Notes: a model not told the origin generated them from the sequence alone. Shown: positions 29,720-52,360, counted from the stretch's first letter. The stretch: 55,076 nt of DNA from Candidatus Bathyarchaeia archaeon (GCA_050012755.1 JBEKGO010000012.1:1-55076); one strand, 5' to 3'. Program-made: numbers and translations.

Positions 29720-31381
29720 TTGATCGATGCACTTCAGGCGCTGTCAGTCATCTTTATACTTGGAATAACGGTACTGTTAGCTTGGCTAATAGCACCATAC
29801 ATTACTGGAGTCTTTAGGCGTAAACCAAGCCGTTTAGACAAGATATTCAACCCAATCGAAAACTTCATCTACAAAATCACAGGGGTAAACTCAGAACAGA
29901 CGATGGGTTGGAAGCAGTACTTCCTTTCAGGTTTACTACTAAATGTTGTTATGATGGTTATTGGCTTTCTAATCCTTGTCTTCCAAGGCAATTTGCCGCT
30001 TAACCCCATGAGATTCGCTGGCGTCAGACCGGACCTCGCTTTTAATACTGTGGCATCATTTGTGACAAACACAAACCTTCAGCACTATAGTGGCGAAATC
30101 ACTTTGTCGTATCTTAGCCAGATCGGTGTTATACAGTGGCTTCAATTCACATCCGCAACGACAGGATTATGCATGGGCATAGCATTTATTCGAGGATTAA
30201 TAGTTGGCTCCAAAGATATGGGCAACTTCTACACTGACTTCACCAGATCCCTCACAAGAATTTTTCTACCACTCTGCATCATAGCATCAATCATATTTCT
30301 CGCATTAGGTGTGCCTCAAACCCTCAATGGTTATACAACAGTAAAAACCATAGAGGGAGCATCACAATCAATTCTAGTCGGGCCAGTAGCTTCTCTTGAT
30401 TCCATTATGCAAATAGGTACCAACGGCGGCGGATTTTACGGTGCAAACGCTGCCTACCCGTTCATGAATCCTTCGCCGATAAGCAACATTCTCATGATCT
30501 CTCTCATGCTTCTGTTGCCCACTGCGTTAATTTTTGTGTTTGGACAAATGATTGGCAAAAAAAGAGAATCAAGACCACTTCTATGGGGCGCTTACATCCT
30601 TTTTGGACTTAATCTGGTCATTGCGTTTATTCCTACCCTTCCTTTGATAGCTCCATTCATAGAAGTCAGATTCGGCGGTTTCATGAGTAGTTTCTACACT
30701 GTTACAACAACGGTCGCCACAACAGGCTCGGTGAACTCGGGTTTAATTGGAAACCATCCTCTTACAATACTTTCTGGATTCTTAGGAATGTTCATTCAAT
30801 CAATCCCAGGCGGAAAAGGTGTGGGTATGATGTACATGATTATGTACATTATAATAACAGTCTTCATAGTCGGACTGATGTCGGGAAGAACCCCTGAATA
30901 CTTGGGCATGAAAATAACAGGGCGCGACGTTAAACTCGTGATGGTTGCTTTCCTCATTCATCCGCTCATCATACTTATTCCTACAGTAGTAGCGTACGCG
31001 TCAGGGGCAGTCTCGGCAATAGGGGTGGGTGGAAACTCTGTTGGTTACACGCAGATTCTCTGGGAATTTACCAGTTCTGCCGCGAACAACGGTTCTGACT
31101 TCTTAGGTGCCTCAGGAAACACGCCGTTCTTCAACATAGCAACCGCAATCGTCATTCTCATTGGACGTTATGCTCCAATTGCAATATTATTGGCGCTTTC
31201 AGGTTCAATGATTGGCAGAAAACGCGGCGGAACAACCTCGGGTCTAAAAACTGACACGCTAATATTCACGCTAGTATTGGTTGCTAGCATCATTATACTG
31301 GTAGTGTTGACTTTCTTCCCATTCTTGGCAATTGGACCATTAGCTTCATTCTTTAAAGGAGCGGTGAACGGTCTTGGCTAA
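29720..31381 (+). CDS. kdpA: K+-transporting ATPase subunit A
   Basis: Filter motifs TNTNLQHYSGE, GTNGGGF, TTGSVN and NNGS; GLMSGRTPEYLG. Confidence 0.96.
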   Translation: MIDALQALSVIFILGITVLLAWLIAPYITGVFRRKPSRLDKIFNPIENFIYKITGVNSEQTMGWKQYFLSGLLLNVVMMVIGFLILVFQGNLPLNPMRFAGVRPDLAFNTVASFVTNTNLQHYSGEITLSYLSQIGVIQWLQFTSATTGLCMGIAFIRGLIVGSKDMGNFYTDFTRSLTRIFLPLCIIASIIFLALGVPQTLNGYTTVKTIEGASQSILVGPVASLDSIMQIGTNGGGFYGANAAYPFMNPSPISNILMISLMLLLPTALIFVFGQMIGKKRESRPLLWGAYILFGLNLVIAFIPTLPLIAPFIEVRFGGFMSSFYTVTTTVATTGSVNSGLIGNHPLTILSGFLGMFIQSIPGGKGVGMMYMIMYIIITVFIVGLMSGRTPEYLGMKITGRDVKLVMVAFLIHPLIILIPTVVAYASGAVSAIGVGGNSVGYTQILWEFTSSAANNGSDFLGASGNTPFFNIATAIVILIGRYAPIAILLALSGSMIGRKRGGTTSGLKTDTLIFTLVLVASIIILVVLTFFPFLAIGPLASFFKGAVNGLG

Positions 31382-38958: not shown

Positions 38959-39037
38959 TGGTGAGGCCGCTGGGATTTGAACCCAGGATCGCATACGCCC
39001 CAGGCATGTATCCTGAACCATGCTAGACGACGGCCCC
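38959..39037 (-). tRNA. tRNA-Pro(GGG), CCA encoded
   Basis: Acceptor GGGGCCG/CGGCCTC, anticodon arm CATGC-CTGGGGC-GTATG, T-loop TTCAAAT. Confidence 0.95.
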
Positions 39038-39332: not shown

Positions 39333-39776
39333 GTGTTCGTAGAAAGAGAAAGGCAGTCGGGTAATGATTTGACTAAAAATAATGATAGCAAGAAATTCGA
39401 AGTTATTCTGCTAGAGACATTAGATGAAGCGTTATCCACTTTAGGAGAAACTGTAAAAAAAACAATTTACTTTCACCTCCAGCAAAAATTCCTAATTGCC
39501 AAACAGGAAATCCCATACAAAATCGACGATTTCTCCGACGCCCTTGAACAAATCTTCGGTTCAGGCGCCCGAACATTAGAGATACTAATCATGATGAAAC
39601 TTCATCAAAAAATCAAATCCCGCTACAGATGGGAAGGTCCAAAATGGCTTGTTCCCGAATTGACTTTCAGTCAATATGTAGAATTATTGAAGTCATTTTA
39701 TGAAGATAATGGAAAAATTGGTCAAGTAGAGGTAATAATTGATGCAGGGGAACAAAGACAAGAACAAAGAGCATAA
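39333..39776 (+). CDS. Conserved archaeal signalling-associated hypothetical protein (DUF3227-like)
   Basis: LDEALSTLGE..IYFHL..IP..FSDALEQIFGSGA pattern; upstream of a receiver-domain gene. Confidence 0.7.
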   Translation: MFVERERQSGNDLTKNNDSKKFEVILLETLDEALSTLGETVKKTIYFHLQQKFLIAKQEIPYKIDDFSDALEQIFGSGARTLEILIMMKLHQKIKSRYRWEGPKWLVPELTFSQYVELLKSFYEDNGKIGQVEVIIDAGEQRQEQRA

Positions 39777-39812
39777 AAACTGTTTATTACAGTTAGTTGG
39801 AGGTGAAAAAAT

Positions 39813-40262
39813 TTGGATCGAAATGCCAAAATACTCATTGTAGACGATGACGAAAACATAAGAAACACGATGAAAGCGATACTTGAGGATGAAGGGTACA
39901 TAGTTGATTTGGCAGCCACTGGAAATGAAGCTGTCCAGAAAACTGAGAGAGTCGCTTACAACCTTGCTTTACTAGACATTCGGCTACCCGACATGGAAGG
40001 CGTAGAACTATTGAAACTAATGAAGGACGCTACTCCAAGAACACGCAAAATAATGGTTACAGGATATCCATCTATGCAAAACGCAATCATAGCCTTGAAC
40101 AAGAATGCAGATGCCTATCTGATCAAGCCTGTAAACGTTGAAAAACTTCTAAACACGGTAAAAGAACAACTGCAATTGCAAGAAGAAGAAAGACAATTTA
40201 GCGAACAAAAAGTAGCAGAATTCATTGAAACCAGAGTCAAAGAGTTATCTAGTCCTCTTTAA
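39813..40262 (+). CDS. Response regulator (receiver domain with short helical tail)
   Basis: ILIVDDD, LLDIRLPDMEG, TG, YLIKP. Confidence 0.95.
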   Translation: MDRNAKILIVDDDENIRNTMKAILEDEGYIVDLAATGNEAVQKTERVAYNLALLDIRLPDMEGVELLKLMKDATPRTRKIMVTGYPSMQNAIIALNKNADAYLIKPVNVEKLLNTVKEQLQLQEEERQFSEQKVAEFIETRVKELSSPL

Positions 40263-40758: not shown

Positions 40759-41019
40759 TTGATTGAAGACAACATAATCGAAATAGGCAATATTGCACAC
40801 TTTTTCCCCAAGATCAGCGTTGCGGTATTAGACTTAACATTGCCTCTGACAGTTGGCGACCGCATCCTTATCAAAGGACCCACTACCGATTTTGAACAAA
40901 TTGTCGAATCCATTCAAATAGACCGAGCAGCTATTCAACGAGCCGAAGGCGGACAAAGCATCGGATTAAAAGTGGCACTGCCAGTAAGAGAAAAAGATGT
41001 AGTTTACAAGAAACTCTAG
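40759..41019 (+). CDS. Small beta-barrel protein (EF-Tu domain II-like / U32 C-terminal-like)
   Basis: HFFPKISVA, GDRILIKGPTTDFEQIVESIQI, GQSIGLKV..PVRE.D.VYK. Confidence 0.85.
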   Translation: MIEDNIIEIGNIAHFFPKISVAVLDLTLPLTVGDRILIKGPTTDFEQIVESIQIDRAAIQRAEGGQSIGLKVALPVREKDVVYKKL

Positions 41020-41446: not shown

Positions 41447-42577
41447 TCAAGGAATTATTTCACAGCCATTGTATTTTACATAATCAAAATCTTTCAGCTT
41501 TATTTTTCCGTTTTTTTGCAATCGCTGAATTCGTGGAATTTCAGTCTTAACGGCCTCCACCAACTCTGCAACTGTGAGGCAAACTTTGTGGTAAGCCGCG
41601 TCGTTCCACCGCTTGGTTATATTAGCGTATAAGCATCTGCCACCGCAGACATTTAGGATTGAACAGTCTATGCATGGCGGTTGTTCAACAAAGATTTTTG
41701 ATAGTTTAAGCGGATCTGCATTGCTTATATGGCCTAAATAGTATTTTTTCATGCCCCACATTGTTGGGCAAGGAATAATGTAACCGTCAGTTTGAATGGC
41801 ATAGTTTATCCAGCCTCCGCCGCATCGCATTAGGCAGTTTTTTTCTTCATTTACAAGGGAATTGGCGATGCCTAGCAAGGGGTAAAGCTTCAAAACGACG
41901 CCCGTCTCCTCCATCTGATCAACCCAGAACTCTGCAAGCCACTTTACGCCTGGAATATAATTTGTTTTTGTCCACTCGTCAAAATTGCGTCTCTGGTAAT
42001 CGTTTCCCCAAAAGCCGGCGTTCAATTGCCAATGTATTGAAGAAAAAGAAAAATCATCGTTTTCTAGAAGCCATCGCACCTGCTTGTAAATATCGGTTTC
42101 CTCCATCACTGTCATTCTAGCGATTAATTCTCCGCTGAAACCGTTTCGTCTTATTAATTTCAGGTTATGGATGACTTTTTGGAAGGTGCCTTTTCCACGG
42201 TAATGATCAGTTAAGGTTTCTTCACCATCTATTGAAACAAGTATTGTGTGAAAACGGTTAACATACTTGGACTCTAACTTGTCAAGCAGCAAGCCGTTTG
42301 TCTGGATCATAAAATGCTTTGGTGTGACGTTATCCATTATCTGTCTGAGCTTGTCTAGAGCAAGTAACGGTTCACCACCGTAGAACGTTAGGACGCATTC
42401 AGGGTCTTTCTCGCAAAACCTACTTAGAGCCTCAGTGTCATAGTTGAATTGAACGGGCAAGTCATAGTCAATTTCAATATCGTCACCAAAATCCTCGTCA
42501 AAATCATCCAAGCTTTCGCCAAAGCAGTACTTGCACTGCAAGTTGCAATGGGACGTGAGGATCACATGAAAGAACAT
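41447..42577 (-). CDS. Radical SAM/SPASM enzyme (resembles the AF0577/TIGR04084 putative peptide-modifying family)
   Basis: CNLQCKYC, FYGGEP, QTNG, SIDG; SPASM cysteines CGGG...PCP...CIDC..NVCGGRC; ends NGCEIIP. Confidence 0.88.
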   Translation of the reverse strand: MFFHVILTSHCNLQCKYCFGESLDDFDEDFGDDIEIDYDLPVQFNYDTEALSRFCEKDPECVLTFYGGEPLLALDKLRQIMDNVTPKHFMIQTNGLLLDKLESKYVNRFHTILVSIDGEETLTDHYRGKGTFQKVIHNLKLIRRNGFSGELIARMTVMEETDIYKQVRWLLENDDFSFSSIHWQLNAGFWGNDYQRRNFDEWTKTNYIPGVKWLAEFWVDQMEETGVVLKLYPLLGIANSLVNEEKNCLMRCGGGWINYAIQTDGYIIPCPTMWGMKKYYLGHISNADPLKLSKIFVEQPPCIDCSILNVCGGRCLYANITKRWNDAAYHKVCLTVAELVEAVKTEIPRIQRLQKNGKIKLKDFDYVKYNGCEIIP

Positions 42578-42601
42578 AGCCTAAATGTGCACAATGCTGC
42601 C

Positions 42602-43951
42602 TTAATAGTATTTTTCCGCCAGCTTCCGCGCTTCCTCATATTCTTCATTCTTTTCTTTGCTTTCATCTTCAGTTTTTTGCTGGGGTTTATCTTTGGAGTT
42701 TTTCTTTTCTTCTTTCATTGCTACTTTCCGGGCCTTCTCAACATAGCTCTTAAGGTCCCTATCTTTGATTGCTTTCTCAGGCAGAGTTTCAGGAGCATAG
42801 ATTAAGGGCAAGACTGCTATGAATAAGAAGAAAGCTCCAAAAGAAAATAGTGCTGAAGTCGCGTTCGAACGATTGAAATAGTTTGATATTTGGTTGCCGA
42901 TAGTGAGATCTAGGAATTTGGAGATGAAAAAGGGCATTACTCCAATTGCGTAATATTTCTCGCTTGATTCACCAAAACTTAAGTCACCCCATAATGTCAA
43001 AATGCACAGGACAAATAGGAAGCCCCATGCAATTCCATCTAAAATTGCATTAAAATAGAGAACAGGTAAACTTGGCAAGGGCGAAAAAATACCTAATACG
43101 GCGGTTCCAAGACCAAGCAAAATAAAACCAGTTACTGCAACTCGTTTTCTCCCCACAGAATCAATGAAAAAGCCGCCAAGTATCGCAAATATCCCAGCAA
43201 AGCCAGTTTGCACTAATGGTAGGTTTTCTGAGCCCGCTAAATTGCTCACAACCCCAGAAGGGGGTGCAACAAGGTAATTTATCAAAGAAAACATTACCCA
43301 AGGTACGAAATACAAGATGAATGAACGCTGACCAAAAATTTTCTTGTAACCTGAAATATCTTTCTTTATCGCCAGCGGTGTGGGAGGAACTTTAGCGGAT
43401 AAGAAAATGATTAATCCAGCTAACCTCAGAATTGCAAGAACAACGCCAAGTATTAGGAGGCTGCTTATTCCCGAAATGCTAAAGGCGACAATTCCAATTC
43501 CGCTTGCAAATAGGGTAATTCCACTTAGGCGTCCACGGCTCTCTACTGGTATGGAAGAAGCGTAACGACCGATACAGGTGGGCATTCCGATGCCTAGAGA
43601 AATACCTAAAAAGAGACCAATCAGGCTGACTTGGGCTATGCTTGATGGATTCACCAAGATGACCGCAAGTGAAGATATTGTGCCAAGAGCCAACCAAATT
43701 ATTAGAAATTGTCTTTGTTGAATTTTTTTTGATACAAAGGTTCCAGCAACTGCTGAAGCAATCAATCCGCCGAAATGTAAGCCCCAAATCAATAGACTTT
43801 GGGAAAAGTTAGGATTAAGATTTGTAACTATTTGTTGGAGCAGAAGAATTAGAACTACATAATACCATATGAAAGAAGTCCCGACTAGTACAATGTCTAT
43901 TAGTGCAGATCGCAACCCAAATCTGAATGGGGTAAGTAGCCTTTTTAGCAT
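42602..43951 (-). CDS. MFS-type membrane protein
   Basis: About 12 TM segments; DSVGRKR motif A, RGRLSG, APETLPE; charged C-terminal tail. Confidence 0.85.
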   Translation of the reverse strand: MLKRLLTPFRFGLRSALIDIVLVGTSFIWYYVVLILLLQQIVTNLNPNFSQSLLIWGLHFGGLIASAVAGTFVSKKIQQRQFLIIWLALGTISSLAVILVNPSSIAQVSLIGLFLGISLGIGMPTCIGRYASSIPVESRGRLSGITLFASGIGIVAFSISGISSLLILGVVLAILRLAGLIIFLSAKVPPTPLAIKKDISGYKKIFGQRSFILYFVPWVMFSLINYLVAPPSGVVSNLAGSENLPLVQTGFAGIFAILGGFFIDSVGRKRVAVTGFILLGLGTAVLGIFSPLPSLPVLYFNAILDGIAWGFLFVLCILTLWGDLSFGESSEKYYAIGVMPFFISKFLDLTIGNQISNYFNRSNATSALFSFGAFFLFIAVLPLIYAPETLPEKAIKDRDLKSYVEKARKVAMKEEKKNSKDKPQQKTEDESKEKNEEYEEARKLAEKYY

Positions 43952-44153
43952 CGAATTTTCATGCTCGAAAATATAGTAAAGATATAGACAATTAAGTATT
44001 TAGTATTAATAATCCATATTTTGTGTCTCGAAGCCACTTTTCAGCTGCCTACACCCGCCTAAAAGTCTTCACCAAAAAACAATATCCGGTATTTTAGCGT
44101 CGGGATAGTATGGTCAAAATGGGGTATCGTTACAAATTAGTCATGACTCTTCC

Positions 44154-44196
44154 GAAAACCTTTTAAGCATATCTGTACAACAGAAATACAGATACA
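44154..44196 (+). promoter_or_regulatory. BRE/TATA promoter of the peptide ORF, with an inverted repeat over the predicted start site
   Basis: GAAAACC-TTTTAAG followed by TATCTGTA-N9-TACAGATA. Confidence 0.6.
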
Positions 44197-44222
44197 AAAG
44201 AAAAGGAGAAGTGCTTCCATCA

Positions 44223-44261
44223 ATGCGCGTTAGACCAATTAGAGCAAAGTATTGGGGATAA
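44223..44261 (+). CDS. Putative precursor peptide MRVRPIRAKYWG (MLPSMRVRPIRAKYWG if started at GTG 44211)
   Basis: Promoter, AGGAG RBS, then a TTGGGG/CCCCAA hairpin and T-tract; lies between the MFS gene and the prenyltransferase-like gene. Confidence 0.6.
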   Translation: MRVRPIRAKYWG

Positions 44262-44286
44262 TTAAGCCCCAATTTTCCATTTTTGT

Positions 44287-45276
44287 TTAGAGATCCTCTA
44301 CTGTTGACTCTAGCAATAGCTCTAAAATTTCTTTATTAACCTTCAGGTAATTCAAATTGCCAATTTCCTCTTTTATCATTTTCTTCATGCGATCAACCAA
44401 GTCTCTGCTTGATTGGCAATCCATCGAAAGATCCAATATCTTTTCAATATTTTCGGTAGTAATTTCATTTTTCAGAATATTTTCAAGTTGCCCATTTCTT
44501 TTTTTCTCTTGAAGAGCAAGCAAAATTGGAAGAGGCAAACATTCGTTTGCAAGTCTATTTCTGACTTCTTCAACCTCAAAAACATCTACAAATTCATCTC
44601 TTAAGGATAATAGTACTCCATAGGTCCTGCCATAATGGCTTAGAATATCGATTTCCTTTGGAGATCCCTTGCCTATAACTGCGCCGATTCTCATTGTTGC
44701 CTCAACGGTTGCTACTTTTTGCCTAACAATTGAAAGAAAATCATCTAACGAAATTGTAGTTTCCCTCCTTAGACTTGCCTCCTTTGCTACGCCGCTGCTC
44801 ATTTCAAAAAAAGTCCTCTTAATTGAATCAAAAATTACATCCTCTTCATTTTTACTCAAGTTCCTGCATCCTTCCCTAAGCAGGTAAAATCCCTTCAAAA
44901 GCAAAGCATCTCCTGCCAATATTGCAATGTCCTGACCGTATTTTCCAAAAACCGTTGGTTTTGATCCTTTATCTACAGATTTGTCCATAATATCGTCATG
45001 AATGTCTGCAGCTCCAGCCAGCAAGACAATTGCGGCACCAATCTTCACAGTTTCACTTCTATCGCCGCCCACGGCCTCACAAGCAAGAGAAACTAAGGCT
45101 GGGTGAAGAACATCAAAGAATTCCCCAAGGAAATACTCCAAAGCCTCCCTTAGAGGCTTAAAATCAATCTTTTCTTCAAGCACGTAGTCTTTTGAGAATT
45201 TCAAAGATTCTTGACCATACGTACCTAAAATAATGTTTACTTTATCCCACAACTTTTCCTTAGGCAAATTAACCAT
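44287..45276 (-). CDS. Polyprenyl-synthase-fold protein with degenerate IPP site (ComQ-like prenyltransferase candidate)
   Basis: First Asp-rich motif HDDIMD, AILAGDALL and LPLPIL retained. GKRxRP replaced by DVLHP; RRG absent; second motif reads RDEFVD. Confidence 0.85.
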   Translation of the reverse strand: MVNLPKEKLWDKVNIILGTYGQESLKFSKDYVLEEKIDFKPLREALEYFLGEFFDVLHPALVSLACEAVGGDRSETVKIGAAIVLLAGAADIHDDIMDKSVDKGSKPTVFGKYGQDIAILAGDALLLKGFYLLREGCRNLSKNEEDVIFDSIKRTFFEMSSGVAKEASLRRETTISLDDFLSIVRQKVATVEATMRIGAVIGKGSPKEIDILSHYGRTYGVLLSLRDEFVDVFEVEEVRNRLANECLPLPILLALQEKKRNGQLENILKNEITTENIEKILDLSMDCQSSRDLVDRMKKMIKEEIGNLNYLKVNKEILELLLESTVEDL

Positions 45277-45416
45277 CGAATTCTATTCTGTATGTATCTG
45301 TTATTTGTCTTTTTAGGTTACAACTTTGAAAGCTTAAGTCACCCTTTCTTTGGGGATCCCCAATTTATGTTTTAAATCAGAAATTCTCATTTGGTCCAAC
45401 GGCTTAAATGCAGTTG

Positions 45417-46517
45417 TCAACCGAGCACTTTCCCAACATACGGTATTTTTTTCAGCGGAACAATCACTGCCAAGCAAATAAACAATGTCAAGGCTGTAAT
45501 TAGTGGTATTTCTATAACGGGGTTTATTGTGGTCACGCTTATTTTGAAGCCTAAATATCCTTTTTGAAGGGTTTCCAAAACCATTACATGGAATAAATAG
45601 ATAGGCAGAGTGTTTTGACTAATAACTTGAATTATACGAGTTGTGCGCGGAACCCGAATCGCTTGCTCGGCAGCCCCAGATACCAACGTTTTCGGATGTT
45701 GGATGGTTGACAACATAAGAAAGAAAACGACTGAAGTAATTATGACGTTGACGCTGGAGGCGTCAAAAAAGAATTGACTGTAGCGTTCTCCCAAAGTACC
45801 GACTATAATATAAGTTCCAATAATGGTCCAAACTAAACTTACAGCAAAAATCAAATACAATATTGAAGGACGTATTTTCATTTTAGCTATATAGGCGCCT
45901 AAAACAAAGTATCCTATCAGACCGGTCAGAATAAAAACTGTTGCCTGGAACCATGTTATTTGAGCGCTAATACCTTGATATAAACCAAAAAGAGGTATAA
46001 TGCCTGTTCCTACAAACCAAATAACTAGTAAATACTTGACAATGTTCCAGTTAGCATAAGTTACGATTACACGTAAGACCGGCGTTAGAAGGTATAAGCC
46101 GATTAAAGCGTAAAGATACCAAAAGTGATAGTAAGGTCCCGCAAGAATACCCTGTATGATTGAATTTGAAGTGAGCACCTCAGAATTAACGAAGTATCGC
46201 CAAGCAAAATATGCTGCACCCCAAAAAATTATGGGTAAACCAATTCGATTGAATCTTTTTTTGAAAAACACCTTGAGCGGCTCATTTACTTTGGCTGGTT
46301 GCAAAAGTAGAGCGCCGGTTAACATGACAAATAATGGTACCGCTGATCGAGCCAAGGAGTTGTAAATATCCGAAGCCCACCAGATTTGCACCCCTTGCGG
46401 CGACATAATATCAATATTGGGAGTTGCTTCTATCGACGCATGAAGCAAAATCACCAAAATGATAGCTATTGTACGAATCAGATCTACTGGAAGCGAGATG
46501 CGCCCATTCGGGTACAA
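45417..46517 (-). CDS. Acyltransferase-3 family membrane acyltransferase
   Basis: DLIRTIAIILVILLHA, AVPLFVMLTGALL, FFKKRFNR, HFWYLY, IYLFH. Confidence 0.92.
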   Translation of the reverse strand: MYPNGRISLPVDLIRTIAIILVILLHASIEATPNIDIMSPQGVQIWWASDIYNSLARSAVPLFVMLTGALLLQPAKVNEPLKVFFKKRFNRIGLPIIFWGAAYFAWRYFVNSEVLTSNSIIQGILAGPYYHFWYLYALIGLYLLTPVLRVIVTYANWNIVKYLLVIWFVGTGIIPLFGLYQGISAQITWFQATVFILTGLIGYFVLGAYIAKMKIRPSILYLIFAVSLVWTIIGTYIIVGTLGERYSQFFFDASSVNVIITSVVFFLMLSTIQHPKTLVSGAAEQAIRVPRTTRIIQVISQNTLPIYLFHVMVLETLQKGYLGFKISVTTINPVIEIPLITALTLFICLAVIVPLKKIPYVGKVLG

Positions 46518-47327: not shown

Positions 47328-47356
47328 GGTTGCCGCCTTTCTTTTGTTAGAAGGAG

Positions 47357-47430
47357 GGCCGGGGCAGGGATTTGAACCCTGGCAAAAGGCTCCACAGGCC
47401 TCTAGGCTACCAAGCTACCTCACCCCGGCC
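47357..47430 (-). tRNA. tRNA-His(GUG) with encoded G-1
   Basis: Acceptor GCCGGGG/CCCCGGC with C73; anticodon arm GAGGC-CTGTGGA-GCCTT; extra 5' G at 47430. Confidence 0.95.
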
Positions 47431-48097: not shown

Positions 48098-49603
48098 ATG
48101 AACGATAGCACATGGAAGTATCTGGTCACTTCGTTCTTGGTTTTCTCACTTTTGTCTTTAACTGTAATTTGTAATGTTGAGGCACAAAACAAGTTCGTTC
48201 TACGTAGTGAACAGCATTGGGACACCTATGGAGTAGGGGGTACATGCGACCATGGATCAAATGACCTTTTTATAGCCGATGTAGATGGCGACGGCATTAA
48301 TGAAATAATAGTAGGAGGCTTCACGTATAACATGATTAATGGTTCAAGAACAACATTGCAAGCCCCACTTACAACATGGAATTGGAACGGACAAAACTTT
48401 ACACTCAAATCAAGTTGCAAATGGCCTGGCACAATCGAAGTCGTTTACGCCGCAGATGTTGATAGTGATGGTGCAAAAGAGGTTATCACAGCTGGAGAGT
48501 TTACGAATGAATCAGGAACTTTCAGTTCTCTAAGAGTTTGGCATTGGAGCAATGGCGCGTTTAGTTTAGAAGCACACTATGAAGGGATTTCAGTTAGCTC
48601 CATTTTTGTTAGCACCTTGAACAATAAAGGCACGCCTGAAATATTTGCAACTGGAAGCTTTGATGCAGATTCCCAGCATACAGCTCAACTTTTCTTATGG
48701 CATTTGGAGGGAAATAGCCTTATCTTGGATAATAACTGGTCGTTAGATGCTGCTAACGTGACAAGTTCCAGTTCAGTTTACGTTTCAAATGTGACCAAAG
48801 ATGGCCAGATTGAGATTTTCACTGCAGGCTATTCTGGCAATCTGAATGACAGCAAGGGGCAACTCTGTACATGGTATCTGAATGGAACAACATTATCGCT
48901 AAAAGCTAATCAGGAATGGCAAATGCAATCAGGAGGCTACGCGCCAAATATCGCCGGGGGCATTTTAGGAAACACAGTTGTAAATAACTTAAAAGTAGGC
49001 GATGTAGATGGAAATGGTGTTCCAGAGATAGTAACAGGTGGGTTCACTTATGATGGCAGCAAAGCTGAAGGTCAGCTTAGAATCTGGAATTGGAACGGAA
49101 GTGCTTTGAATCTTCTGGGCAGTCGAGAATGGATAAATGATGATATTACTGAAGTTCTGAGTGTCTCTTTAGGTAATGTGGACAGCGATTCGTCAATAGA
49201 AATCGTTACCGGTGGGATGTTGGCACCTTATGGGAGCTTCAACACAAATGCTACCAAGCCAGATCGAGGGCAGGTTAGTGTCTGGAGCTGGAATGGAAAA
49301 ACTTTGACACTGAAAGAGAGTGAAGACTGGACTTTAGCCGAAGGTGTTAGTGTGTGGAATGTCGGCACAGCCGATTTGAATAATGATGGAAAAGTCGAGA
49401 TAGTAAGTTGCGGATGCATATCTTTCAACAGATTATGTGATCCTGACATGAGAATCTGGTCCATTATGCAAAGCTCCTCTGAAGAGGCTTTTTCAGCTTT
49501 GCCTCTCTTACTTTTAGCGACAATTGTGGCAATCTTAGTTTCTGCGGTAATTTTTATGGTGGCTAAGAGGCGGATTGTTAAAGCAAATAGAACAATTCTT
49601 TGA
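48098..49603 (+). CDS. Surface protein with FG-GAP/VCBS-like repeats and C-terminal TM anchor
   Basis: Signal peptide; repeated DVDGDGxxEI motifs; C-terminal hydrophobic helix with basic tail. Confidence 0.88.
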   Translation: MNDSTWKYLVTSFLVFSLLSLTVICNVEAQNKFVLRSEQHWDTYGVGGTCDHGSNDLFIADVDGDGINEIIVGGFTYNMINGSRTTLQAPLTTWNWNGQNFTLKSSCKWPGTIEVVYAADVDSDGAKEVITAGEFTNESGTFSSLRVWHWSNGAFSLEAHYEGISVSSIFVSTLNNKGTPEIFATGSFDADSQHTAQLFLWHLEGNSLILDNNWSLDAANVTSSSSVYVSNVTKDGQIEIFTAGYSGNLNDSKGQLCTWYLNGTTLSLKANQEWQMQSGGYAPNIAGGILGNTVVNNLKVGDVDGNGVPEIVTGGFTYDGSKAEGQLRIWNWNGSALNLLGSREWINDDITEVLSVSLGNVDSDSSIEIVTGGMLAPYGSFNTNATKPDRGQVSVWSWNGKTLTLKESEDWTLAEGVSVWNVGTADLNNDGKVEIVSCGCISFNRLCDPDMRIWSIMQSSSEEAFSALPLLLLATIVAILVSAVIFMVAKRRIVKANRTIL

Positions 49604-49756: not shown

Positions 49757-52360
49757 TTATGCGTGTTTTCTGAGGATCAGTACACCAATTATGGCTATTG
49801 CAATGATTATAACGATTGCTACAACTGCCAAGTACATTAACAGGTCCGAGGATGTCGCTAGATTTTGTATTGGGGTTGGCGTTGCTGTTGGTTGTACCGC
49901 TGCATTAGCGTAAACGTGTGTTTCAGCAAATGATGCGTAATAGCCGTTTGTGCCTCCGAATTCAGCGTATATTGTGAAGCTGCCTGGAATATCAGGTGCC
50001 CAATTGAGGTTGAAGGTTCCGCTTGCATCTGTTGTGGCTGTGCCAATGCTTCGGAAGTTGTTATTTGAATCAACCACGCTTAAACTGACTGTAACGCCAG
50101 TGAAGTTGGTTGGTTCTGGTTGTTGCTGATAGACGTAGCCCATCCATTCTCGCATGCTTGCATCGGATGAAACTGGAACTCCATTTGGAAAGTCGCCGGC
50201 CTGTTCAGTCTGTGTTGTGCCTGTAGATTTGTCCATTACTGTGCCCTGGATGACGATTTTGTCGCCGACCGTGACGGAGGTAAGTGGTGCTTGTACTGTA
50301 GTTGCGCTTGGTCCTCTGCCGACAACGTAAATTGAGTTGTCATAGCCGTTGAACCAGGTGTTGTAGCCATCAGCCATAGCGTAGCTGCTAGTTGTGAATT
50401 CTCCAGTGTAAGCTGAAACAGTCCAGATTTCCTGTCCGGTAGTGGCGTTTATTGCTCGAGCCAATGATCCCTTGAACAAGGGTGTTTCAATAGTGTGCTC
50501 AGTAGTTACAGTGTATACGACTCCGTTGCCTATTGCGTTTATAAAGGTTGGATAGTGTCCGAAAGGTGATTCAAGACCAGAATTGGTGGAGTTACCTGAA
50601 CCGCCATTTCCATAAGTCCAAAGCAGATTGCCGGTCTTAGTATCATAGCAGAAGACTACTCCAGCGTATGCAGCACTGTAAAGTTTTCCATAAGCAAATC
50701 CGGCTGCCAATGTGCCTGCTCCTGGACTGCCGTAGTAATCAAGGCTTGGTTGTGATGGAGTCGGTCCCCATAGTCTTGAACCGGTGTCTAAACTGTAGCC
50801 AACAAAGTTGTTAGTTTCTCTAAGGTTTTCGACGAATACTCGGTTTACAGGGTCAATTCCGTCCTCAAGGACTGACAAGTTGCCTGCTGGTGCATTGTAG
50901 GTTTGGTGCCATAGAACTTGGCCTAGCGAGGATGGGTTCATGCTGAGAGCAAAGTATGTGTATGGTGTTGAGCTCGCTGTGCCCACGAAAGTTGCACCTG
51001 TTGAAGGTAGAGAGCCACTGTAGCATAATAGTATGTCACTGGTGATTCCTCCAACTTGGGTCACAGTTCCAGCAGTGTTAAGATATGGCGCAGACACATT
51101 CCAATCGAGCAACAATGCATTGCTTCCGTCAGTGATTGACGGGGCGTTAGTGGGCGTAAATAGCGTACCAATGGTATTTGCATTAAACCACAGTCTAGAT
51201 ATGTTCCATTCTTGTAGATAGTAGTTCGGACTCGCTCTAGTGCCGTAGTTAACCATTTTAATTATTAATTGTTCACCATTTGGGCCCATCAGTTTTGTTC
51301 CACTTGGAACATTTGTCAAGTTAAATAATGCATTTCCTGTGTATGCGTCAAATGCTCGATATGTACTACTGAATAGGATTGGTGGCCAAGTTCCGTGTTG
51401 GTTTTGGTTTTGTTGGTCAAATATGTAGCCGAAGGATGGTGCAGGAACATCGGTTCGTGACCATACTACTTGTCCTGTTTGCAGATTGACACAGACAGTG
51501 GGTCCCGAGCTAGGTCCGTTGTATCCCAATGGCGCAACGTAATAGAGCAGTCCTTCCATTATTATCGGGTTCACGAATCTTTGAGAGTAGGCTGATCCTT
51601 CGAAGTATGAAGCACCTGGGATTGCGCTTTGGTTTCCACCAACTATTCCGCCTGCTTGCAATGGTTTAGTCCACATAATATGGCTAGTCATTGAACCTAT
51701 AGAATCACCGTTATGTCCATTCATTATTTCGCCGCTGCCGCCAAAGCTCAAGCTATTGTATCCTACTGAACCGGTACCTAGCCAGTTTGACGAGATAACG
51801 TTCCAGTTAGGGTTAGTGCCATAGATTGGTCTTGTCCAGTAGTTGGTTGGAAGTGGGGGTAAGGCTAAGTTGGAGATTGGTGTCTGCTGAACTGTGAGTG
51901 TTGTTGAGGCAGAACTAGCAAGATACGTATCGTTGATGTATGCACTTTTTGTCGTAGTATAAGTGTAAATTTGACCTGGGAAAGTGAAGTTAAGTGTGTA
52001 AGCACCGACTGTGTCTGGGGCGAAGTAATAGTCTTGTGCTGATGTGGTGTCCTGAACGATGGGCCACGATTGTGTTGTTACTGTTCCATTTGGGTTAGTT
52101 ATGGTTAACTGGTAGTTTTGGAATCGAACAGCGTTATTAGCAGCAGCGCCATCTATAACATAGTTTAGCCACATTATAACTTCAACGCCTTGACCAACTC
52201 CAACGGGGTTGGGCGACGCATTGATGTAGGCAAATGTCGGTAACGACCATGGAGGTGTATGTGCGCCAGCGCTTGGCACGAGAAGCAATGAAGCTGACAT
52301 TGATACTATCAAGAATATAGCAAATGCAATAGCTGCAGTCTTATTTTTTCCTAATTTCAT
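49757..52360 (-). CDS. Large secreted PQQ-type beta-propeller repeat protein with C-terminal TM anchor
   Basis: Signal peptide; SPNPVGVGQ and LPTNYWTRPI; repeated TGxxxW blades; YDNSIY..GRGPS; PTATPTP linker and TM. Confidence 0.88.
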   Translation of the reverse strand: MKLGKNKTAAIAFAIFLIVSMSASLLLVPSAGAHTPPWSLPTFAYINASPNPVGVGQGVEVIMWLNYVIDGAAANNAVRFQNYQLTITNPNGTVTTQSWPIVQDTTSAQDYYFAPDTVGAYTLNFTFPGQIYTYTTTKSAYINDTYLASSASTTLTVQQTPISNLALPPLPTNYWTRPIYGTNPNWNVISSNWLGTGSVGYNSLSFGGSGEIMNGHNGDSIGSMTSHIMWTKPLQAGGIVGGNQSAIPGASYFEGSAYSQRFVNPIIMEGLLYYVAPLGYNGPSSGPTVCVNLQTGQVVWSRTDVPAPSFGYIFDQQNQNQHGTWPPILFSSTYRAFDAYTGNALFNLTNVPSGTKLMGPNGEQLIIKMVNYGTRASPNYYLQEWNISRLWFNANTIGTLFTPTNAPSITDGSNALLLDWNVSAPYLNTAGTVTQVGGITSDILLCYSGSLPSTGATFVGTASSTPYTYFALSMNPSSLGQVLWHQTYNAPAGNLSVLEDGIDPVNRVFVENLRETNNFVGYSLDTGSRLWGPTPSQPSLDYYGSPGAGTLAAGFAYGKLYSAAYAGVVFCYDTKTGNLLWTYGNGGSGNSTNSGLESPFGHYPTFINAIGNGVVYTVTTEHTIETPLFKGSLARAINATTGQEIWTVSAYTGEFTTSSYAMADGYNTWFNGYDNSIYVVGRGPSATTVQAPLTSVTVGDKIVIQGTVMDKSTGTTQTEQAGDFPNGVPVSSDASMREWMGYVYQQQPEPTNFTGVTVSLSVVDSNNNFRSIGTATTDASGTFNLNWAPDIPGSFTIYAEFGGTNGYYASFAETHVYANAAVQPTATPTPIQNLATSSDLLMYLAVVAIVIIIAIAIIGVLILRKHA

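Follow-up and report, generated by a model that had tools for sequence, protein, structure and literature searches.

A conserved micro-gene beside a divergent prenyl-synthase-fold gene in Bathyarchaeia: a candidate module for a lipid-modified peptide

The locus and its gene set

A stretch of 55,076 nucleotides (nt) from a Candidatus Bathyarchaeia archaeon (GCA_050012755.1 JBEKGO010000012.1:1-55076), referred to here as the window, harbours a micro-gene of 12 codons that was overlooked by every gene caller. Its neighbours encode a protein with the trans-IDS (trans-isoprenyl diphosphate synthase) fold, hereafter simply the enzyme, a transporter of the major facilitator superfamily (MFS), and a radical S-adenosylmethionine (radical SAM) enzyme with a SPASM domain. 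These four genes form a module that is conserved in Bathyarchaeia. Their sequences suggest that the micro-gene yields a short peptide and that the enzyme may transfer a prenyl group to the tryptophan near its end, comparable to the bacterial ComQ/ComX pair. The assembly from which the window comes comprises 2.41 Mb in 65 contigs, with 41.6% G+C.

In the window, the enzyme and MFS genes are separated by 335 nt. The micro-open reading frame (micro-ORF) lies in this gap on the opposite strand, convergent with the enzyme gene and divergent from the MFS gene (Table 1). A preliminary description of the region, made from the sequence alone, had listed the tiny ORF with a B recognition element (BRE) and TATA box, an AGGAG sequence, a terminal hairpin and its neighbours. 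All of these are present in the sequence, with small corrections.

Searches with four window proteins (tblastn) recovered a constant order in most loci: the enzyme gene, a gap of ~130–400 nt, the MFS gene and, ~24–30 nt further on, the radical SAM gene, all on a single strand. Module membership was counted at the 62 enzyme-gene ends whose downstream sequence extends for at least 3.2 kb. The micro-ORF, the MFS gene and the radical SAM gene occur together at 51 of these 62 ends. The MFS and radical SAM genes are found at three ends without a micro-ORF that satisfies the strict rule given below, and the micro-ORF and MFS gene at two without the radical SAM gene (L051, L072). Four ends, which belong to a paralog clade with a divergent MFS gene, have none of the three on that strand; two ends show other arrangements. 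Tandem copies of enzyme gene, micro-ORF and MFS gene stand ahead of one radical SAM gene in L048 and L066, and two enzyme genes are present in L005 and L094. The preliminary description had been hesitant about the radical SAM gene; its synteny at 51 of the 62 ends makes it a firmer member than was first supposed.

Homologs of the enzyme (E ≤1e-40) were found in 24 of 41 related genomes. Of the 80 loci fetched with the enzyme family, 76 are labelled Bathyarchaeota or Bathyarchaeia, with which the protein atlas is concordant. The remaining four (two 'Nanoarchaeia', one 'Thermoproteota' and one 'Limnocylindrales') are all bins of metagenome-assembled genomes (MAGs). The proteins and loci nearest to those of the window are from Bathyarchaeia.

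Table 1. Features of the micro-gene region, with window positions.
Feature	Position	Strand	Remarks
Micro-gene, 12-residue cationic peptide MRVRPIRAKYWG	44223-44261	+	ATG ... TGG GGA TAA; presumed precursor and substrate
BRE/TATA-like CCGAAAACCTTTTAAG	44152-44167	+	Promoter of the micro-gene
Palindrome TGTACAACA, likely operator	44174-44182	+	Between TATA box and presumed start site
ATACAG, likely start site	44186-44191	+	Order of promoter elements kept in relatives
Shine-Dalgarno-like AGGAG	44204-44208	+	14 nt 5' of ATG
7-bp hairpin, possible two-way terminator between convergent genes	44251-44273	.	44251-44257 pairs with 44267-44273; weak
Trans-IDS-fold protein, 329 residues, presumed peptide prenyltransferase	44287-45276	-	PF00348, 86.5 bits
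MFS transporter, 449 residues, presumed exporter	42602-43951	-	PF07690, 51.4 bits against a gathering score of 33.4
Radical SAM/SPASM enzyme, 376 residues, TIGR04084	41447-42577	-	24 nt after the MFS gene
Acyl_transf_3 gene, neighbour only	45417-46517	-	PF01757, 136 bits

Conservation, coding and promoter of the micro-gene

Micro-ORFs were counted by two rules. The loose rule demands Trp in the last four residues, at least three Lys or Arg among the 12 preceding residues, and an ORF end from 45 nt inside to 200 nt beyond the enzyme stop. The strict rule adds a start codon, a Shine-Dalgarno (SD)-like word 3–18 nt upstream, and a length of 8–32 amino acids; its whole-genome version admits ATG, GTG and TTG starts only and 8–25 amino acids. 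Strict-rule and module counts (78 or 62 ends) use loci L021–L100 only. The 97 ends of the loose count contain some places fetched twice, and L002–L020 partly repeat genomes of L021–L100. Identical peptide tails, which may mark the same places, occur in L002/L048, L003/L050, L004/L056 and L006/L075/L076/L080/L084. Both rules were drawn up post hoc, when the first peptides had already been seen, and controls on the sense strand, in random windows and in the whole genome serve as a guard.

The preliminary description had proposed a scan for short ORFs beside homologs of the enzyme, and the outcome is clearly positive. All of the first eight relatives inspected carry, on the antisense strand just past the enzyme gene, a short basic ORF that ends in Trp plus none or one residue. 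By the loose rule, 84 of 97 enzyme 3' ends are positive on the antisense strand, whereas the sense strand is positive at 5 of 97, and 187 of 1980 windows of 245 nt drawn at random from these loci contain a match. By the strict rule, a convergent basic micro-ORF with start codon, SD sequence and a Trp that is last or second-last is present at 62 of 78 ends, which yield 60 distinct peptides of 12–20 amino acids. The distance from its stop to the enzyme stop codon has a median of 27.5 nt (range -18 to 143). Applied to both strands of the 2.41-Mb genome to which the window belongs, the strict rule gives 131 candidates, or about one per 37 kb of strand. The peptide motif matches four places in this genome: the micro-gene itself, which is the only one recognised as intergenic, window position 2083, C8 and C27. 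The match at position 2083 was rejected as a copy of the micro-gene and is attributed to chance, since it lies inside a 394-residue ORF in another frame.

The peptides follow a common pattern. Met is followed by a stretch rich in Lys and Arg, usually with Lys-Pro-(Ile/Leu/Val)-Arg; a second Pro-Ile-Arg is frequent. Next come one to four variable residues, often including Gly, the Trp, none or one residue, and the stop. Trp is most commonly second from the C-terminus, as in MRVRPIRAKYWG. It is followed by a second Trp in 18 of the 60 peptides, most peptides being single-Trp, and preceded directly by Gly in 16; Cys occurs in none of the 60. The motif P-[ILVMF]-R is encoded in 49 of the 60 distinct micro-ORF DNAs, where Pro is written with four codons and Arg as AGR 36 times and CGN 13 times; Ile/Val codons vary too, and the residues themselves are kept. 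Between the micro-ORFs of the window, L021 and L022, all changes are synonymous or exchange Lys and Arg, except at residue 10. Because its place is conserved, the controls are low, and residues are kept while codons change, we conclude that the micro-ORF is, as far as such comparisons can tell, a translated gene selected for its peptide.

Thirteen ends fail the loose rule. Three of them have micro-ORFs without Trp, and in L046 Trp is sixth from the end; some others are the second copy of a tandem array or fall into the paralog clade that lacks the peptide. Within the strict-rule set, the second micro-ORF of the tandem array of L048 has its frame broken after four codons in an A run, with the Trp tail in another frame; this copy is either a pseudogene or an assembly error.

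Upstream of the micro-ORFs, relatives share one order of elements: BRE/TATA-like CGCAAAnCTTTTAAG, the palindrome TGTnnAACA, ATACAG, a GGAG-type SD sequence and the start codon. A strict composite pattern of the promoter is found in 43 of 78 target zones, whereas 1.62 Mb of these loci outside the zones contain four matches. The 2.41-Mb genome has a single match, at 44161-44190 of the window. A GGAG-type word precedes the start in all 62 strict-rule loci, as the rule itself requires. The palindrome, which has the TATA box on one side and the presumed start site on the other, looks like an operator; the genes of the conserved module do not include a TGTnnAACA-binding regulator. A sigma-70 scan, the consensus of which is not suited to archaea, gave two promoter-like sites against 1.8 expected.

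The hairpin covers the last codons of the micro-ORF, including Trp and stop. The terminator-like structure reported earlier exists at the ORF end, with T runs after it, but it is modest (-11.6 kcal/mol, z -2.0, with 7 of 200 shuffles as stable), and a scan for consensus terminators found no site. Inspection by eye shows it in no relatives but the closest, L021 and L022.

The enzyme and the companion genes

The PF00348 score of the enzyme exceeds the gathering score of 27 and places it in the trans-IDS superfamily. An AlphaFold2 model (pLDDT 93.5, pTM 0.91) has the all-alpha synthase fold, and its best Foldseek match is the geranylgeranyl diphosphate (GGPP) synthase 1wy0 of Pyrococcus horikoshii (TM 0.82), with Ord1 among the top matches. 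A profile of the enzyme family compared with the PDB also has 1wy0 as its best match (110 bits), and Ord1 as the third (79 bits). Every NCBIfam equivalog cut-off, however, is missed by far; the best match is IdsA_Meth with 124 bits against a cut-off of 468.

Across 76 aligned family rows, GGKRxR is deleted, and the RRG after the first Asp-rich motif is replaced by K-x-S (K-G-S in the window protein). Instead of DDxxD, the window protein has RDEFVD as its second motif, the family form being (S/A/T)-L-R-D-E-F-V-D, and the Lys-rich lid that follows it is deleted. The enzyme shows none of the marks of a chain-elongating synthase of GGPP or farnesyl diphosphate (GGKRxR, RRG, DDxxD, equivalog cut-off). 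Invariant, on the other hand, are HDDIxD (HDDIMD in the window, with D94, D95 and D98), K103, K187 and D231. A canonical GGPP synthase with GGKRWRP, RRGKP, FQMQDDILD and the Lys-rich lid is encoded elsewhere in the same genome (G000:C9).

In enzymes of this class, GGKRxR, RRG and the other lost residues hold isopentenyl diphosphate (IPP), and the kept residues hold the allylic diphosphate, so that the expected chemistry would be prenyl transfer to an acceptor other than IPP. The enzyme can be described as a diverged paralog of the archaeal GGPP synthases; the predicted donor-binding motif is kept in it, and the IPP-binding motifs are lost. An archaeal GGPP synthase is likely to be the ancestor of the family, since 1wy0 is the best match in sequence as well as in fold; 1wy0 has the IPP-binding motifs and a canonical DDxxD, whereas the window family has neither. 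Many homologs are named geranylgeranyl pyrophosphate synthase by the Joint Genome Institute (JGI) and are thus mislabelled in public records.

Precedents for such a change of function come from bacteria. The available portions of PMC13290415 describe all characterised trans-IDS-like prenyltransferases, among them ComQ, the P domain of ChrPC and PalQ, as targeting Trp. The marks of the ComQ family are DDxxD and a pseudo-second motif NDxxx (bioRxiv 10.64898/2026.08.29.745113, accessible part). Judged by these published definitions, the enzyme has the first. Another feature of that family, a short ORF next to the enzyme gene with a near-C-terminal Trp, is present at 62 of 78 ends, with three Trp-less exceptions. 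ComQ of the Bacillus comQXPA system has given up IPP condensation, and so, to judge by its motifs, has the window enzyme. As far as the accessible sources describe it, ComX is cut from a longer precursor, and its cluster includes the ComP kinase and the ComA regulator, in a bacterial system with NDxxx. The window module, by contrast, has a leaderless peptide of 12–20 residues, no conserved sensor, an attached MFS transporter and radical SAM/SPASM enzyme, and RDEFVD in the second motif.

StheQ and StheX of Sphaerobacter thermophilus (Chloroflexi) likewise form an adjacent enzyme/peptide pair. According to the accessible part of bioRxiv 10.64898/2026.08.29.745113, StheQ modifies the Trp second from the C-terminus, the position also found in the window peptide; StheX has 69 residues, and the pseudo-second Asp-rich motif of StheQ contains N215. 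Its authors state that ComQ-like systems thereby extend beyond Firmicutes. PalQ of Paenibacillus alvei is also an enzyme of the isoprenoid synthase superfamily. It prenylates the C-terminal Trp of PalX, which has a leader of the NHLP (nitrile hydratase leader peptide) type and whose cluster includes a histidine kinase (PMC10853753, accessible part); the window peptides are leaderless and have no conserved sensor. The basic aromatic core DNVRRFFW of PalX is reminiscent of the window peptides, and Gly next to Trp, here before it, favours PalQ (PMC13290415, accessible part). PalQ needs Trp as the very last residue, whereas the window family usually has one residue after it. Ord1 (PDB 9v4g-9v4j) shares with the enzyme the fold (TM 0.70–0.74), a degraded GGKRxR (GKMMGP) and an Arg-Asp at the start of the second motif. 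It differs in having RRS after the first motif and Gln216, where the window family has Ser, Ala or Thr. Its described substrate, in the available portions of PMC13290415, is free tryptophan, which it farnesylates, and not a peptide. Taken together, the module looks as if it works like ComQ/ComX while standing outside the ComQ family; its enzyme, best matched by 1wy0 and 5jfq, appears to be a separate recruitment from archaeal GGPP synthase.

Structure prediction of the enzyme-peptide complex gave a score of 0.36, against 0.02 for the best of three controls, the 12-residue peptide being below the calibrated chain lengths. Contact agreement between runs was at least 77%, and the pLDDT of the partner at least 57. 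In the calibration, which included no chain of fewer than 30 residues, 58 of 80 solved complexes and 2 of 110 mismatched pairs attained the mark; just 7 of the 80 solved complexes, but both passing mismatches, did so with scores of 0.60 or less. The prediction thus weakly favours the pairing.

The radical SAM gene is the best conserved of the set, with 60–83% identity across Bathyarchaeia loci, and to all appearance is transcribed together with the MFS gene. Its product belongs to TIGR04084 (304.3 bits, cut-off 225) and has a SPASM domain (TIGR04085, 40 bits against 27). The next-best families are peptide maturases, all far below their cut-offs: PapB (103.7 bits), the nif11 maturase (78) and DynA (68.3). 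With such maturases (PapB, DynA, PqqE-type), it shares the CxxxCxxC core, the SPASM domain, and a short peptide gene and exporter in the vicinity. It differs from them in that TIGR04084 is widespread in the phylum without such a peptide and in that the peptides here are free of Cys.

TIGR04084 is a widespread archaeal enzyme family without an assigned function. Of 151 genomes from the phylum, 63 contain a member that passes the cut-off, and scores are 400–612 bits in other lineages as opposed to ~300–350 in Bathyarchaeia. At 12 loci from other lineages (L101–L112; 31–53% identical), neither an MFS gene nor an enzyme homolog was found, and none of them has a credible micro-ORF near the radical SAM gene. 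The strict rule gave six matches, spread over four of these loci; the closest, in L110, lies ~220 nt upstream of the radical SAM gene, and none has the Pro-Ile/Val-Arg motif. Nor do the 12 loci have a common neighbour: the Pfam search, made on one adjacent ORF in ten of them, returned M20 peptidase, AdoMet synthetase, ornithine carbamoyltransferase (OTCase), LysE and others. By analogy, the radical SAM enzyme may act on the micro-gene peptide, although we lean slightly towards doubt; the role is inferred, since its basis is synteny and the habit of SPASM enzymes.

The surroundings of the module were compared with 99 related loci, using window ORFs of at least 70 amino acids from position 30000 onwards. 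With ORFs that overlap these genes in another frame set aside, the widely recurring neighbours are the enzyme, the MFS and radical SAM proteins, and an 86-residue ORF at 40759-41019 (+) that has no Pfam match and has homologs in 17 of the 99 loci. The acyltransferase, a less certain member in the preliminary description, was rejected because it recurs in just 2 of the 99 loci (L015, L021). A response regulator at 39813-40262 (three of the 99 loci), a NitrOD5-like ORF (two loci), a small winged-helix-turn-helix-like ORF (three loci), and ferredoxin and HTH_10 genes (at most four loci each) were likewise rejected as members. Within 39333-40262 (+), the stand-alone receiver domain of the response regulator comes after the NitrOD5-like ORF, a weak match (22 bits, under the cut-off). 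Farther away are a large FG-GAP repeat protein at 48098-49603 (+) and a PQQ-like beta-propeller protein at 49757-52360 (-), the latter present in six related loci. At Rfam gathering thresholds, the window has two tRNAs and the enzyme-MFS gap no match. These are tRNA-Pro (GGG) at 38959-39037 and tRNA-His (GTG) at 47356-47429 (-), called by Rfam and ARAGORN, and they flank the region.

Interpretation of the module and competing explanations

We hold, with about even confidence, that the enzyme is a Trp prenyltransferase like ComQ or PalQ that acts on a leaderless peptide which the MFS protein exports, leaving aside the role of the radical SAM enzyme. The micro-gene would give rise to a leaderless cationic peptide of 12–20 residues, and the enzyme would bind an allylic prenyl diphosphate at its retained HDDIxD motif. 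Instead of condensing with IPP, the prenyl group would then be passed to the near-C-terminal Trp, as by ComQ, PalQ and StheQ in bacteria, and the lipopeptide would leave the cell through the MFS protein. A second modification, such as a cross-link to the conserved Pro-Ile/Val-Arg stretch, may come from the radical SAM/SPASM enzyme, presumably encoded on the transcript of the MFS gene, and a regulator binding the TGTnnAACA palindrome between the TATA box and the start site may control the micro-gene. This reading is favoured because the pairing of peptide and enzyme is fixed across the enzyme family, down to ~31% identity, because the acceptor site of the enzyme is remodelled, and because the characterised enzymes of this kind take a Trp near the peptide end.

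Several observations weigh against it. The likeness to ComQ holds for the features of a prenyltransferase that no longer condenses IPP, but not for two marks of known enzymes. In place of NDxxx, the family has D-E-F-V-D, with Asn first in 2 of 31 rows. The Gln before the second motif (Q216 in Ord1), which the accessible part of PMC13290415 presents as a common mark of the trans-IDS-like prenyltransferases with Ord1, PalQ and ChrPC, corresponds to Ser224 of the window protein; family members have Ser, Ala or Thr there. The known substrates ComX, PalX with its NHLP domain and StheX with its 69 residues, as described in the accessible sources, have long leaders, whereas the window-family peptides have none. 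A leader or recognition sequence, as expected of the precursor of a ribosomally synthesised and post-translationally modified peptide, is absent from peptides that measure 12–20 residues in all; recognition could fall, at most, to the basic N-terminus and its Pro-Ile/Val-Arg. The Trp of the counted peptides is there partly by construction, the strict and loose rules both demanding it. The SD-ATG spacing of 14 nt is long, and the identical spacing recurs in relatives. In seven loci (L033, L048, L050, L056, L057, L065, L066), the start position reads ACG, with SD sequence and spacing unchanged, whereas close relatives such as L045 and L064 have ATG there; either ACG initiates translation or the start is deliberately weak. 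Seven further loci start with TTG and two with GTG.

Loci without Trp are a further difficulty. L010, L012 and L015 (G021, G018 and G019, of the window's genus) have the usual promoter, SD sequence and basic micro-ORF, with peptides that lack Trp: MKKAKKKEVPVRVLP in L012, and ends in PVRTLPP and PARFD in the other two. Since these loci keep the enzyme, the MFS gene and a radical SAM protein 76–81% identical to that of the window, Trp is not indispensable to the module. Their enzymes retain the first Asp-rich motif, the invariant Lys and the other invariant polar residues. They differ at P59 (Ala or Val), A90 (Phe), L125 (Phe or Cys) and E245 (Asp or Gln), which are conserved in 95–100% of 65 peptide-associated rows. 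A90 is four residues ahead of the Asp-rich motif, at what we take to be the chain-length position of this fold. Enzyme changes alongside the loss of Trp are what one would expect if the peptide end and the enzyme pocket cooperate; the co-variation probably reflects a single evolutionary event and therefore counts once.

Enzymes without a peptide also exist. Eight paralogs (L061, L062, L071, L075, L076, L080, L083, L084) form a single clade, have all the invariant residues and lack a downstream micro-ORF. Six of these loci have enough flanking sequence; in them, a divergent MFS gene lies upstream, and there is no radical SAM gene nearby. Four stand alongside a full module in the same MAG (L026/L062, L047/L071, L049/L080, L058/L083), and L036, from the same MAG as L061, has enzyme and micro-ORF at a contig end. 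The underlying tree (FastTree) excluded ORFs of fewer than 250 amino acids and L002–L020; in it, L055, L082 and the second copy of L048 were scored by eye as peptide-bearing though they fail the strict rule.

Among the other explanations, the one that deserves most attention, although it is unlikely, makes the peptide a substrate of the radical SAM/SPASM enzyme alone. That enzyme might introduce, for example, an Arg/Pro/Ile-Trp carbon-carbon cross-link, or some other modification, with MFS export, and the prenyl-synthase-like protein would make an isoprenoid or attach one to another target. The full SPASM domain, the maturases among its next-best families, the placement ~24–30 nt behind the MFS gene in most loci, its rank as the most conserved gene and its retention in Trp-less modules all suit this explanation. 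Yet every maturase match is far under its cut-off, and the 12 loci elsewhere in the phylum have TIGR04084 with varying neighbours and without MFS gene, enzyme homolog or credible micro-ORF. The micro-ORF, moreover, is placed at the enzyme gene's 3' end and is retained in L051 and L072, where no radical SAM gene occurs within ~6 kb downstream. Thioether chemistry of the PapB type is excluded because the peptides lack Cys. It is very unlikely that the micro-ORF is instead a regulatory device, whether as a leader or arrest peptide or by providing an antisense RNA with its 5' end, perhaps Trp-sensitive and gating antisense transcription into the enzyme gene. Its length resembles that of bacterial Trp leader peptides, it has one or two Trp codons at its end, the hairpin extends across the codons for Trp and stop, it is aimed into the 3' end of the enzyme gene, and an operator-like palindrome lies within its promoter. 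A device of this sort would, however, leave unexplained why the basic N-terminus and Pro-Ile/Val-Arg, needless for a Trp sensor, survive codon changes; most peptides contain a single Trp, no gene follows downstream on the micro-ORF's own strand, and the hairpin is weak and confined to the closest relatives.

Two further explanations are hardly credible. An ordinary chain-elongating GGPP synthase beside an irrelevant small ORF would agree with the JGI naming of many homologs and with a GGPP synthase as the best PDB match. It conflicts with the deletion or replacement of the IPP-binding motifs in 76 of 76 family rows, with an equivalog score of 124 bits against 468, with the canonical synthase elsewhere in the genome and with the conservation of the micro-ORF. 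A chance ORF within a conserved non-coding element, be it promoter or RNA, is suggested by a length of merely 12 codons; against it stand the frame, start, SD sequence and stop, which are constant amid diverged DNA, the switches of Arg between AGR and CGN, and the low sense-strand and random-window controls.

Returning to the prenylation reading, one may ask what the product would be for; it might be a signal, a membrane-active peptide or something different. The preliminary description spoke of quorum sensing, which the locus does not support: the scan of 99 related loci found no histidine kinase, receptor or other sensor conserved with the module, a point that also counts against the likeness to ComQ/ComX, and quorum sensing is for this reason a guess. 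We regard it as quite unlikely that the module makes a diffusible cell-to-cell signal, a leaderless peptide prenylated by an independently recruited enzyme, modified by the radical SAM enzyme and exported by the MFS protein; if it did, it would be the first peptide pheromone system of archaea. The statement that no such archaeal system has been described holds for the accessible literature, which shows these enzymes from bacteria only; a full-text search that did not cover subscription journals found neither an archaeal counterpart nor this Bathyarchaeia gene set.

Bathyarchaeia are among the most abundant archaea of anoxic sediments and soils, and hardly any are cultured. Their module also exposes a blind spot of annotation, in which a 12-codon gene goes uncalled and its partner enzyme is mislabelled as a GGPP synthase. 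The precursors are short enough to be bought as synthetic peptides, so that the hypothesis is testable with one purified enzyme, and an enzyme that accepts the bare 12-residue peptide would be a possible tool for peptide lipidation. With precedents in the literature that are bacterial, the conserved module is the first good archaeal candidate for a lipid-modified ribosomal peptide. If the reading is true, the prenyl-synthase fold would have turned into a peptide prenyltransferase in these archaea independently of the bacterial lines.

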